Virus genome (UHGV): UHGV-2199615
Length of the DNA: 22,709 bases
Reading direction: 5' to 3' (one strand)
DNA from: a virus
The translations under genes and the position numbers were made by a program. Numbering within the stretch: the first letter of the stretch is position 1; every line of letters starts with the position of its first letter. The notes beneath the pieces were generated by a model. It had not been told where the DNA came from. It searched no databases and saw nothing but the letters and a program-made list of their open reading frames with translations. Of the stretch, positions 2,002 through 6,532 are shown one piece after another.

Positions 2002-2115
2002 GTTACCCTCCACGCAAACAACTCTTTTCGAATACAAAAGATAGCAAAGTGAGTATATCTAGTCAAAATTTTTTTGCATACACTTTGCTATCAAATTGAA
2101 TACCAAAGGTGTTAT
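2002..2115. promoter_or_regulatory. Divergent immI promoter/operator region (Pant-like leftward, Pmnt-like rightward)
   Basis: 114-bp AT-rich spacer between divergent arc-like and mnt-like genes. Perfect 12-bp inverted repeat gatagcaaagtg (2040-2051) and cactttgctatc (2081-2092), 29 bp apart. Confidence 0.5.
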
Positions 2116-2364
2116 ATGGCAAAGGGTGTGTCAATTTCTCCAACTACGGTAAGAATCCCTGAATCTTTACGCGAGGCTCTTGCTGTCAGAGCATCAAAAA
2201 ATGGTCGCTCTGTTAACTCCGAGATCGTCATGATTTTGCAAGCCGCGATTGATGAAGATAGGTCGCCAAAGTCAGTTGAGTCATTTGCTCAGCAAGAAGC
2301 TGATAAATTCAAAGAGGCGCTACTTGAGACGCTAAAGACCATGTATGCTAAGGATGAAAAATAA
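2116..2364 (+). CDS. mnt: Mnt-like ribbon-helix-helix repressor
   Basis: ORF 2074..2364; start chosen at internal Met (MAKGVSISPTTVRIPESLREALAVRASKNGRSVNSEIVMILQAAI...TLKTMYAKDEK, 82 aa). Resembles P22 Mnt (83 aa) in the N-terminal RHH and C-terminal helix, and is divergent from arc-ant. Confidence 0.7.
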   Translation: MAKGVSISPTTVRIPESLREALAVRASKNGRSVNSEIVMILQAAIDEDRSPKSVESFAQQEADKFKEALLETLKTMYAKDEK

Positions 2365-2900
2365 TGCTGCACACAATTCATTTCTTATGCCCTGTTAACA
2401 CTGCCACTGTTGGGCAACTTCAGAACCACTGTCTCACCGCATTATCTCAAGGCGCAACTGAATTAAATATCCATATATCAAGTCAGGGAGGGGAAACTGC
2501 TGCTGGCTTTACTGCGTATAACTTTCTTAAGTCACTCCCTGTTACCGTTAGAACTCACAACATAAGCAATGTTGAATCCATAGCTAATATCGTTTTCCTG
2601 GCTGGCTCAGAACGTTTCGCAAACCCATTATCAAGATTCCTGTTACATCCTCTATTATGGTGCTTTGCCTCCCCAGCCGCCGACCATGCCAGATTGAGAG
2701 AGTACGGGAAATGCCTCGATAACGATCTTGATCGCTTCGTTGAGACGTTCAATATCGACATCGGAACCCATATTAGGTGGGCATCCCTGATAGCAGACTC
2801 GACCATTTTGGATGCTAACAAGGCTCTTGAGCATGGCATAATTAATTCCATAAAAACTGCAAGGCTGGCATCCAATCAGGCAAACTGGTGGGTTGTTTGA
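2364..2900 (+). CDS. ClpP/S14-fold (Clp-protease-like) protein of unknown role, translationally coupled to mnt
   Basis: ATG at 2364 overlaps the mnt TAA (taATG). 178 aa with HISSQGGETAAGFTAYNFL and NVESIANIVFLAGSERFANPLSRFLLHP, which align by eye with the ClpP motifs NSPGG..AG..IYD and GQAASMGAFLLTAGAKGKR...SRVMIHQP. Candidate Ser, His and Asp positions are present. Confidence 0.6.
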   Translation: MLHTIHFLCPVNTATVGQLQNHCLTALSQGATELNIHISSQGGETAAGFTAYNFLKSLPVTVRTHNISNVESIANIVFLAGSERFANPLSRFLLHPLLWCFASPAADHARLREYGKCLDNDLDRFVETFNIDIGTHIRWASLIADSTILDANKALEHGIINSIKTARLASNQANWWVV

Positions 2901-2925
2901 TGGGTAAATCATGATTACTCCTTAT

Positions 2926-2950
2926 AAAAAACCCACCTGACGGTGGGTTT
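2926..2950 (-). terminator. Intrinsic terminator between convergent genes (strong on minus strand, weak on plus)
   Basis: Plus strand a6-cccacc-tgac-ggtggg-ttt. The minus-strand RNA gets a 6-bp GC stem followed by U6, immediately after the stop of the 149-aa ORF. Confidence 0.6.
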
Positions 2951-3398
2951 AGTCAAACATAGTGTTTCTAAAGTCTCTCGCATACCCTGCTAACACTCTC
3001 ATTCTATTATGATTGTTAGCAGACATGTGAGCTACAGGATGAAAAAGAGCAATCAATGAATACCTGTTCTCATCAAAAAGATTTTGTGCATAAACGAGAG
3101 CGGTATTGGATGTTTTATGCCACTGCAACTTTTGCGGTGTGCTGATATCTGTGCCATTTTTTATTGGCTCAAATTTATTTTCACCAATTGCTAAATGAAG
3201 GTGCATAAGGCCTGCATCTTCAATATCAGGAGGTCGATGATAAGAGGTGTCTCTGCCAAAATAGCTGGGCAACGTTCCCGTAGACTTGTAGATGATAAAA
3301 TCATCTACAAGTGTTTGTTTTAAATCAGGAAACTCAACAAAAACCGGGGAGAAAAAATAGTCAAAACTATCCTGATTATATTCCACGGTTACTTGCAT
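2949..3398 (-). CDS. Putative toxin, YafO-like (ribosome-dependent mRNA interferase family) by recalled motif similarity
   Basis: 149 aa; GAGG SD 7 nt upstream of ATG at 3398; starts 8 nt after the stop of the upstream 188-aa ORF. Segments DFIIYKSTGTLPSYFGRD, LMHLHLAIGEN and QKLQWHKTSNTALVYAQNLFDE resemble E. coli YafO as I recall it (FISYKRDGVLPDIFGRD, VAHIHLANENN, QLRQWSRTNDTAHLVYCQGAFDE). Confidence 0.6.
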   Translation of the reverse strand: MQVTVEYNQDSFDYFFSPVFVEFPDLKQTLVDDFIIYKSTGTLPSYFGRDTSYHRPPDIEDAGLMHLHLAIGENKFEPIKNGTDISTPQKLQWHKTSNTALVYAQNLFDENRYSLIALFHPVAHMSANNHNRMRVLAGYARDFRNTMFD

Positions 3399-3406
3399 GT
3401 TTTACC

Positions 3407-3973
3407 TCAGTGGAAGTTACCAGAGTGAAACACACGAGTCCCGTGCTCAGCAAGCGCACGCAAACCAGCCATATCTACGGAACTATCAAAAACAACCGGA
3501 ACACATGAGCGTTGTTTAATAAGACTATTCAGGTTGGTTACGGCAGATCTGGCATCAGCAACAACGATATAGATATCTCTTGCGATCTCTTTAAAATCAG
3601 CAGAAGCTTCTTTGAATACCGATTTCATTGCCCCTTCAAGTCCTCTCAATTGATGCTCTATCAATCGAGACTTTTCTGGTTCAATGATAGACAACACATT
3701 GTCTACATTCTCATCGGTAGCGTTTGCAAGAACACGATAAGCGTATTTCAGCATTCGAGACAATTCTTTAATCGAAGACACCGCCTCATGAAGCTCATCA
3801 TTAGCCCGTTCACTGCTGAATGAGGATTGATGGTAAGCGTGCTGAACGTTATCAGTAACAACCACCTCACAACTGAACGCAGAAGCTTGCTGTAATAGCA
3901 AACCTATTGCGACTCCAGCTTTGGCAGCGTTCAAGCTAAACATTTCATCAATCCCATTAGTCTCATTGCTCAT
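3407..3973 (-). CDS. Hypothetical protein (188 aa), first gene of a two-gene operon; candidate antitoxin or partner of the YafO-like protein
   Basis: ORF 3407..4003; start chosen at internal Met (MSNETNGIDEMF...) preceded by strong SD AAGGAGG. No motif I recognise, and no obvious RHH/HTH. Stop TGA lies 8 nt before the downstream ATG. Confidence 0.6.
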   Translation of the reverse strand: MSNETNGIDEMFSLNAAKAGVAIGLLLQQASAFSCEVVVTDNVQHAYHQSSFSSERANDELHEAVSSIKELSRMLKYAYRVLANATDENVDNVLSIIEPEKSRLIEHQLRGLEGAMKSVFKEASADFKEIARDIYIVVADARSAVTNLNSLIKQRSCVPVVFDSSVDMAGLRALAEHGTRVFHSGNFH

Positions 3974-4148
3974 ACAAACCTCCTTCTTATCGGAGATTAT
4001 CAATAGCTATGCATCCATTGAATACACGCTATGCGCAATAAGTTTACGTCACGTGATATCATTATGCAACCACCGTTCTATCACCGACTAACTTTACTCC
4101 CACTCCTATACATCATCTGGTATCCTGCGCAAAACTAAGGAGGTTGGT
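3974..4148. promoter_or_regulatory. Divergent promoter region between the 188-aa operon (minus) and the membrane-protein gene (plus)
   Basis: 175-bp AT-rich intergenic region; palindrome TCACGTGA at 4049-4056 is a possible operator; strong SDs on both flanks. Confidence 0.3.
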
Positions 4149-4499
4149 GTGAATGCTCAGTCTGTCATCATGGTTTTCCTTGGGCTGATTGTCGCAAAAC
4201 TATATCCAGACTGGTGGAAAGGGGCATTAGCTACTGTCGCCATCTATTTGCTTTTATCCATCGTTAAGCGATCACTCGCTGAGACCGTAAATCAAGCAAA
4301 ACGTTTCTCATTTAAGAGTTTAATAAACTATGTTACTGGGCTTATTTTTTGCCTTTCAATTCTGATCGCTTCGGCTTTTTTGCCCGTATCAATAGCTAAT
4401 TTTTTTGGCGCACCATATGAGGTAGGTTATCTATTCTCTGTTTCCTGTCTTGCCATTGCTCTTCTTTACCTGTGGACGAGATCAAAGAATAAAAATTAG
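4149..4499 (+). CDS. Small polytopic inner-membrane protein (116 aa); candidate superinfection-exclusion or lysogenic-conversion protein
   Basis: GTG start preceded by TAAGGAGG. Three to four hydrophobic helices (VIMVFLGLIVAKLY, ALATVAIYLLLSIV, LIFCLSILIASAFLPVSIANFF, LFSVSCLAIALLYLW). Convergent with the gp16-like gene, in the position occupied by sieA in P22. Confidence 0.55.
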   Translation: MNAQSVIMVFLGLIVAKLYPDWWKGALATVAIYLLLSIVKRSLAETVNQAKRFSFKSLINYVTGLIFCLSILIASAFLPVSIANFFGAPYEVGYLFSVSCLAIALLYLWTRSKNKN

Positions 4500-4516
4500 C
4501 CATCCGTGGCTGCCAG

Positions 4517-6532
4517 TTATTGAGCTTCTTTTTGTGATGCCTGTGCGACTCTGGTGAGCGATTGTGTGACCGTACTGATCGCTCTGTCATATGCTGTGCT
4601 ACCTTTTGGCGTATTTGCCAGACGTAACAAGGCATTTCGTATAACAGGGCTTTCGTATGCCTTCGCAGCTCCTCCTACGACACCAGCAGCAGGAACAACA
4701 AACGCAGCCGTTTTTAGCATCCCCGCTAATACTGCTGCGTTTATGATGCCACCACCAACTAACAATCCATAAAGCTGCTGACCATTTAAGTTTTGAACGT
4801 TCGCTTTTGCCGCGTGTCTTGTATCGTTGAGGTATTTAATAACGCCGTCCAGTTCCTTTCCATGTACGCCTTTAAAGAAAGTTGCTGATTGCTTCCTGTT
4901 CCGGTGTAACGCATTAATAAACTTTTCAACACTAATATTTCCAGACGGATCAGTCGCCTTATCTACAGCATTCTGAACTATGGCTGCTCGTGCGTTTTGC
5001 CTACCATTGTCATCCAGAAGCCTGTAAAGCTGAGAACGTTCTGATGGGTTTTGGCTAAAAACGAGTTTTGTTACATCCTCAGGTGTAGCCTTGCCGCTGG
5101 CTATTGCCTTTTGAACGCGCGTTCTTCTCATCATGTCATTGAATCTAGCCCATGAGCGATCAACCCTAGACATATTGGCAGCTTCTTCTGAGCCTAGTTT
5201 TTGGGATACTGCTTTTTTCATATCCGCTGTATATGCCTTGTAGACAATATCGCTGGCTTTCTGGAGCGTGTCTTTATCAACAGTCTCGTTTGAATTCATG
5301 AACCGCTTTCGAAGGTCAGTTCTGTTTTCTCTCGCCAGACGCAGGTCATTGGGTCCGCTGGTGATATCGTCTTTAAATTGCTGCAAGACTTTTACCGCGG
5401 CTCTATCCTGAGATTTGCCCGGGCGGCTTAACACGGCAATCTGATTGTCGATAGCTTTTACCGTGTTTGAGAGATCGACAGGGGTATCCCCCATAGCGTC
5501 AATTATGCGGTTATATCGCTTTCCTGCTGCCTCAATGAATTTTTGTTGCCCTTTAGTCGCAGATTCATAAAGCTGTTTATCAGAAATGCCACCCAGACCA
5601 TCGCTAAATGTTCTGACTAAATTTTCTCGTGCTTGTTGTTGATTCAGCCGATTCTTACCGGTTCCAAAAAAAGGAACTCTTTCGCCTAATGTCTGAGCCT
5701 GACTCTGCATAAAGGTTTTATCTTTCAGCGTGTCACTGGTCATTAACGGCAGGTTTCTTTCCGACGCAAAATCGACAGCAGCCTTTGCTTCCGGTGACAT
5801 CTCACCGCGAACAGCCCTGGAAACCGCACTAACTGTATTTTCCAGCCCCTTGCCAACACCACCAATGCCAGCAGAAATTACCGTTTGTGCAGGATCAATA
5901 TCTTCTCCGCCAGCAAGGCTGGTGCCACCCTGTAGTGCTAAATCTGTAGCAGCTGATTTCCCTATGGCACCAAGCACCGTTCCAGCCCTGCCCGCTGGTG
6001 TGAACGCTAACGCATTAGCAAGAAACGAAGTCAGGTCTTGCGGTGATAAACCTGGCTTGTTCAGGGCATAATCACCGGATGGCAGGGAAACGATAGTGTT
6101 ACCCTTCTCATCCTGCCTTAATTTCGCCCCCATACTCTGAAGAATCTTTTCCTGAGACGCGTCGGAGCCGAAAAGTTGAGACCATCCAGCCTTCAGGGCA
6201 TCCATGCTTAGTGAGTTCAACTCAGGGGCAGCCCCAACATTTTGCAGTCTCTCCATTTCTGGTGTCATTCGGCTTTCACCGGTAACGGCATCGCGCATTG
6301 CAGCACCTAAAACAGCCCCTTGCTCAGCAGAGCGATCTAGTCCTTCCTTCTGCTGAGTGGCAAGCTGTGCATATCCTGATGCAAGTGAGTTGTCTGCTGG
6401 CGATTGCTGAACACCTTGTTGTGTTGGCGCTGACTGACCAGCAAAATACTCATCAATGGCGGACCCAATATCTTCCGTGCTCGTACCATCAGGAAAGGTA
6501 AATGTCTTACCATTTGCAGTTACTTTCATCAT
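4517..6532 (-). CDS. Ejection (E) protein, P22 gp16-like
   Basis: 671-aa ORF, last of three consecutive ejection-protein genes (230, 483, 671 aa) matching the P22 order gp7-gp20-gp16; start overlaps the gp20-like stop (ATGA). Confidence 0.75.

Follow-up and report, generated by a model that had tools for sequence, protein, structure and literature searches.

Our sequence comparisons indicate that the small gene at positions 4149 to 4499 of the window—by which term we refer to the whole stretch analyzed, the 22,709 nucleotides of the UHGV virus genome UHGV-2199615—fills the sieA cassette slot of a P22-like prophage from the start codon to the stop codon, and that this gene is, as judged from those comparisons, an allelic alternative to genes of the SieA family. 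The slot is framed on both sides, by a leader that finishes with the start codon and by a palindrome beginning at the stop codon, which arrangement may be new: neither the two-sided framing nor the bias of the slot toward envelope proteins was found in the literature on the ant moron and SieA, our coverage of which was incomplete. The family to which the encoded protein belongs is uncharacterized and absent from the PHROGs; SieA and the variability of the region were already known.

The region in question is the ant moron, located between the P22 genes 16 and 9 and described, in the sections of that work on which we draw, as highly variable and as carrying unique genes of unknown function, with the APEC-1 prophage of E. 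coli APEC O1 already included (Villafane et al., 2008; PMC2629481). The window corresponds to that region, and the 116-aa gene sits between the homologues of genes 16 and 9, with ant, arc, mnt, and the tailspike gene on the side opposite from gp16 (Table 1). The stretch from 2900 to 4600 is 100% identical to the P22-like prophage of E. coli S88, APEC O1, and ATCC 11775; positions 4149–4499, we conclude, are a true moron gene, carried by a P22-like prophage of the APEC-1/S88 type. In common with the exchangeable cassettes of the ant moron, the gene is variable among syntenic phages, possesses signals of its own, and is transcribed against the late operon; those same sections (PMC2629481) do not describe the leader with its end at the start codon, the palindrome next to the stop codon, or an envelope bias among the cassettes, nor do they characterize the present gene.

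Table 1. Features of the ant moron region in the window (positions are those of the whole stretch).
Feature	Positions	Strand	Remarks
ant	714–1682	−	
arc	1849–2037	−	
mnt-like gene	2074–2364	+	
ClpP-like gene	2364–2900	+	
YafO toxin gene	2949–3398	−	Pfam 3.4e-22
188-aa gene	3407–3973	−	phrog_8416
Divergent intergenic region	3974–4148		175 bp, between the 188-aa/YafO operon and the cassette
sieA-type leader	4118–4151	+	TGGTATCCTGCGCAAAACTAAGGAGGTTGGTGTG, including the SD and the GTG start
SD	4137–4143	+	AAGGAGG, 5 nt before the GTG
Cassette gene (116 aa)	4149–4499	+	predicted inner-membrane protein of four helices; GTG as start codon, TAG (4497–4499) as stop codon
Palindrome	4498–4511		AGCCATCCGTGGCT, overlapping the stop codon of the cassette gene
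gp16-type ejection (DNA transfer) protein gene	4517–6532	−	671 aa; outside the cassette; next in the gene order are gp20 and gp7

The sequence-only reading of this DNA had described the gene as convergent with a gp16-like gene and as divergent from the 188-aa/YafO operon across 175 bp, and both descriptions hold. The two convergent stop codons are 17 bp apart, and in P22 sieA is likewise convergent with gene 16, at a distance of 22 bp. The true start of the 188-aa ORF is the ATG at 3973, since the alignment to phrog_8416 opens at residue 11 and GAAGGAGG precedes that ATG, which start sets the intergenic region at the length given in Table 1; within that region, the conserved leader makes up the last ~37 nt only, the remainder belonging to a set of at least 14 upstream modules that can stand in for one another. 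As to the neighboring genes, the YafO partner is an unusually long protein of 188 aa, listed in PHROG as of unknown function, rather than a short antitoxin of the YafN type, and has a weak, coiled-coil-like match to the C-terminus of ZorA (E 0.004); the two genes move together as a module in its own right. The mnt/arc-type repressor gene overlaps stop-to-start with that of a serine protease of 178 aa resembling ClpP (Pfam CLP_protease 2.2e-11), whose nearest PHROG is a head maturation protease and which is an odd passenger for the immunity-I region; in locus L028, just the first 71 codons of this gene are left. The gp16 type of the window has no close nucleotide match among the sequenced phages of the collection and is common in E. 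coli prophages; matches to phages (e.g., N7, CUS-3, HK620) were confined to the gp7 end and to a portion of gp20.

The 116-aa ORF is a real, conserved gene under purifying selection: the dN/dS ratio was 0.14 in the comparison with the Yersinia copy (dS 1.24) and 0.35–0.46 among the E. coli variants. A query of 411 bp spanning the gene (window 4100–4510) was matched over at least 80% of its length in 227 of 5426 complete E. coli genomes (~4%). The GTG start and the strong SD that had been proposed from the letters alone were both upheld. Relatives that are 36–38% identical have an ATG at the GTG codon, and N2 and Q4 are conserved; since, in addition, the homology across different cassettes ends exactly at this GTG, we regard that codon as the real start. 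The RefSeq annotation of the start is inconsistent (window 4149–4170; loci L132 and L133, 4969–5023), the protein being given as 109 aa from an ATG at codon 8, as 116 aa, or as 129–130 aa through the leader.

Where three to four transmembrane (TM) helices had been anticipated, the topology prediction gave four hydrophobic segments, at residues ~3–19, 23–39, 59–83, and 92–110; and the AlphaFold2 model, of low confidence (pLDDT 64), places helices at 3–18, 23–49, 55–85, and 90–115. The lysine and arginine residues are concentrated in the loop 40–58 and in the C-terminal tail, which distribution, under the positive-inside rule, favors an N-in/C-in topology. With this orientation, the two conserved elements of the protein—the KLYPDWW turn, which is invariant, and the NFFGAPYE loop—are predicted to face the periplasm.

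The left-hand frame of the slot is the leader. The 34 nt ending in the GTG of the window are identical at 33 positions to the leader of P22 sieA, which also ends at the P22 GTG, and the leader of the experimentally active type-B sieA of HS1 is related (27/31 identical), while an extended form of 40 nt (4112–4151) is common to other E. coli cassettes. A scan of IMG/VR for the leader core recovered at least 119 loci; a complete ORF followed the leader in 117 of the matches listed, and in 93 of these 117 that ORF starts at a GTG located 6 nt after GGAG. The leader scan of the GTDB species representatives gave, among the matches listed, two irrelevant ones only. The PsieA hexamers annotated in P22 are located farther upstream than the shared 34 nt and have no conserved counterpart in the window, and a consensus sigma-70 scan upstream of the cassette gene found no plus-strand promoter. 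The leader RNA is unstructured (z +0.94), and the Rfam search over window 3300–4800 found no known RNA. The expression signals shared with sieA, so far as can be read from these alignments, are at the translational level. Two promoter candidates picked out manually, CATCAT at 4111–4116 and TGGTATCCT as an extended −10, were unconvincing and are not claimed.

The right-hand frame is the palindrome CCATCC(A/G)TGG, which, among the loci listed, abuts the stop codon in 36 loci of six cassette families, the present one included, and lies within 30 nt of the stop in two further families, P22 sieA among them, so that it accompanies eight of 13 families in that sample; the palindrome is kept even in relatives of the cassette protein that are only 35% identical. 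As an RNA this element is weak (−5.7 kcal/mol; 3′ hairpin z −0.44). On the minus strand, a U-tract comes after the palindrome, and the two together have the look of a terminator downstream of gp16 (window 4480–4511), to which, because of the weakness of the 3′ hairpin, we do not assign a strong terminator role. This U-tract is the reverse complement of the last codons of the cassette gene, AAT AAA AAT TAG (N-K-N-stop), and therefore the C-terminus of the protein and the late-operon signal overlap. In loci L035 and L066 and their relatives, belonging to the 99-aa and 68-aa cassette families, the palindrome is followed by a second small gene in the same direction (…GGAGGTTAATATGGTAACAGTCGG…), and some slots therefore carry two tandem cassettes.

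The evidence is most direct in two E. coli strains, in which the present gene and a SieA-family gene stand as alternatives. U14A carries a variant of the 116-aa gene and E66 a 204-aa protein of the SieA family (E 2e-9 against the SieA of HS1 and 8e-8 against that of P22; motif TNRYPGEARRARK, TNRYPGEA); the flanks of the two are identical at 98/100 and 285/300 positions upstream and at 991/1000 downstream, and the ORFs between those flanks are unrelated. The assignment of the gene to the sieA position, which the sequence-only reading had made from gene order and topology, is thus substantiated by the 33/34-nt leader and by the allelic alternative between flanks 95–99% identical. In a third strain, STIN_95, the upstream flank of U14A and E66 leads into a gene for a secreted protein of 132 aa; the downstream flank there is divergent near the cassette (58/100 positions identical) and identical at 936/1000 over 1 kb. 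In the yicG-site P22-like element to which these loci belong (L135 in E66, L136 in STIN_95), a gene annotated as “Abi family protein” is found ~0.9 kb upstream of the slot; the gp16 gene of E66 is annotated as a pseudogene.

Taking together the IMG/VR loci listed, the window, and the annotated loci, we found the leader in front of at least 13 mutually unrelated ORF families, with which at least 14 upstream sequence modules combine freely. Counted over the window and the annotated loci in addition to the IMG/VR matches listed, these families comprise a 129-aa signal-peptide protein (at least 21 members), two distinct 109-aa single-TM coiled-coil proteins (at least 18 and at least 14), the SieA types A/B (at least 15), a 161-aa lipoprotein (at least 14), two-TM proteins of 62 aa (at least 10) and 75 aa (at least 8), the family described here (at least 6), and five smaller families with two to five members each among the loci listed. 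A signal peptide, a lipobox, or TM segments were recognized in 12 of the 13 families, and one appears to be soluble, again among the loci listed; and those of the non-SieA families that have a PHROG match are all labelled “unknown function.”

Every non-remnant member of the 116-aa family abuts one type of gp16, 63–97% identical, next to which gp20 and gp7 are divergent (21–57% and 38–53% identical, respectively). The association was nevertheless rejected as evidence of a functional coupling of the protein to this gp16 type, because many E. coli genomes have the same gp16 type with another cassette and because in these the homology to the window starts exactly at 4498–4500, that is, with the breakpoint at the stop codon; the association is for the same reasons best taken as physical linkage. 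An exception to this neighborhood is the prophage remnant of E. coli O111:H8 7-54 11A (locus L134, 4984–5373; also H121–H123), in which an intact homologue, 89% identical, stands beside ykgL/ykgO/ykgM, with genes for PerC-family and HTH regulators upstream and with gp16 and the other virion genes lost.

In searches with the protein itself, nothing significant was found in Pfam, PHROGs, PADLOC (0 families), or NCBIfam (noise far under the cut-offs); the profile search of the PDB gave 0 matches and Foldseek against the PDB none; and tblastn against 50,697 phage records gave no match, so that no isolated phage in that set carries the gene. An HMM search run exhaustively over 1.84 billion representative proteins recovered seven proteins only, all alike, of which four constituted added distant relatives. 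A clear match to a housekeeping membrane family, which would have told against an exclusion protein, was absent from Pfam, NCBIfam, and the PDB, as was a match to any virulence family; and under three RefSeq accessions of the family we found no literature report of expression or phenotype.

The earlier impression that the protein does not resemble P22 SieA was confirmed by homology search: BLASTP gave E 0.29, and the profile comparison by hhalign with SieA types A, B, and A+B gave probabilities of 0.1–0.5%, versus 98.8% for the control comparison of A with B. The SieA motif FxRYPxEAxxFNK occurs neither in the protein nor in any of the six reading frames of the window, and no SieA homologue was found elsewhere in the window. 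Because BLASTP, profile comparison, and motif search were all negative, the protein is not a member of the SieA family.

With SieA of Salmonella phage P22 and its relatives of types A, B, and C (Hofer, 1995; Leavitt et al., 2024) the present protein shares the slot inside the ant moron, the convergence with and abutment on gene 16, the leader with its SD and GTG start, and a predicted polytopic inner-membrane character, yet no sequence or profile similarity. SieA proteins have 162–212 aa and 3–4 TM segments, whereas the present protein, one third shorter, has four predicted hydrophobic helices within its 116 aa; the cytoplasmic loop of SieA measures ~50 aa and that of the present protein 19 aa; and the best-conserved motif is predicted to be periplasmic here (KLYPDWW) and is cytoplasmic in SieA, where FxRYPxEAxxFNK is the conserved C-terminal motif of the family (PMC10883804). 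SieA is required, and on its own suffices, to keep P22-like phages from injecting their DNA; sieA constructs with 85–106 bp of upstream DNA suffice for exclusion, and the P22 mutations that escape SieA affect the C-terminal parts of gp16 and of gp20. The means by which SieA acts on gp16/gp20 conduits of such diversity was left as an open question (Leavitt et al., 2024; PMC10883804).

Against this background we consider it quite possible, though we hold the view tentatively and by analogy, that the 116-aa protein is a non-homologous analogue of SieA that blocks the entry of the DNA of P22-like phages at the inner membrane. A weak promoter immediately upstream would drive its expression in the lysogen, as for sieA; the protein would insert in the inner membrane as a four-helix bundle with both termini in the cytoplasm and would prevent the conduit that the ejection proteins gp20/gp16 of superinfecting P22-like phages form from passing DNA across that membrane. 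Several observations argue for this reading: the near-identity of the leader to that of P22 sieA together with the precise U14A/E66 swap; the circumstance that 12 of the 13 slot families among the loci listed are of the envelope type expected to act on phage entry; the position of the gene 17 bp from gp16, whose C-terminal region bears SieA-escape mutations in P22 (PMC10883804); and the lack of any other SieA homologue in the window, along with purifying selection and the intact copy in the gp16-less O111:H8 remnant. The reading is weakened by the lack of homology to SieA, the missing cytoplasmic motif, and the shorter protein; by PsieA hexamers that are not conserved and the lack of a consensus promoter upstream; by the low confidence of the structural model; and by the consideration that a shared slot is not proof of a shared function, with one slot family being apparently soluble.

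More speculatively, and with a good deal of reserve, we suggest that the framed swap site circulates its at least 13 families of small envelope proteins as an anti-injection repertoire against the ejection conduit, of which repertoire the present protein would be a minimal four-TM excluder of unrelated fold with a periplasm-facing active surface.

The T4 Imm, HK97 gp15, and lambda RexB proteins are phage- or prophage-encoded proteins of the inner membrane, all small, which either prevent DNA from entering or exert their effect at the membrane; the likeness of the present protein to these is a functional analogy only, no Pfam, PHROG, or PADLOC model being matched. A different reading, which we judge rather unlikely, is that the protein serves in the envelope in some other anti-phage or protective role, whether against other phage types, in an abortive infection by membrane depolarization in the manner of RexB, or as immunity to a membrane-targeting toxin. 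The slot proteins are very diverse—a lipoprotein, periplasmic, single-pass coiled-coil, and two-TM proteins—and need not share a target, and the absence of the SieA cytoplasmic motif and the retention of the gene in a remnant without ejection genes would sit well with such a role; but no defense, Rex, or Imm model of PADLOC, Pfam, or PHROG was matched, no partner sensor gene co-travels with the gene, and the precise allelic swap with a SieA-family gene points elsewhere.

A further alternative, improbable in our estimation, is that of a lysogenic-conversion or host-fitness factor with no relation to phages, acting in membrane homeostasis, stress, or the virulence of ExPEC/APEC. The gene is common in the K1 ExPEC/APEC lineages; its intactness in the O111:H8 prophage remnants and the frequency with which morons carry genes of this kind, as stated in the sections of the ant moron description used here (PMC2629481), are likewise consistent with such a function. 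The family is, however, confined to P22-like elements, where it abuts gp16 always except in the remnant, and has no homology to any housekeeping or virulence family.

That the ORF might encode a holin- or antiholin-like regulator of lysis, or else be non-functional, we regard as very improbable. Similarities to holins did appear in the searches, in the form of a sub-threshold Pfam Phage_holin_3_6 match (E 0.065; 13.7 bits, the cut-off being 28.4) and of Foldseek matches to LydA holins (E 0.47–1.2), but all these scores are below significance (Foldseek E ≥ 0.23), and the gene is no part of the lysis cassette and runs antisense to the late operon; and against a spurious ORF stand the dN/dS of 0.14 and the conservation of both SD and start.

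The sequence-only reading had left open whether the protein acted independently or with the neighboring operon, of which options the first was borne out and the second was not: a joint module with the divergent 188-aa/YafO operon, to which the arrangement over 175 bp of shared sequence, seen in the window as in loci L089, L125, and L126, might point, is most improbable and largely refuted by distribution, the gene being found without the operon in at least five contexts—Yersinia (L003), L007, L009, L028, and the yicG-site element (L132–L134)—and thus being independent of it, while L101 has the operon and the window-type upstream module with a different cassette, and the obligate co-occurrence with YafO expected of a toxin–antitoxin partner is not observed.

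Should the 116-aa protein indeed exclude phages as a SieA analogue, an unrelated, minimal protein in the same slot would provide an independent handle on the step at which DNA delivery by podoviruses is vulnerable. The slot with its two frames, moreover, amounts to a list of a dozen more candidate exclusion proteins, which candidates are suited to the existing single-copy galK assay; and with the gene present in ~4% of the complete E. coli genomes, including K1 ExPEC/APEC, the protein could affect the susceptibility of those strains to P22-like therapeutic or transducing phages.
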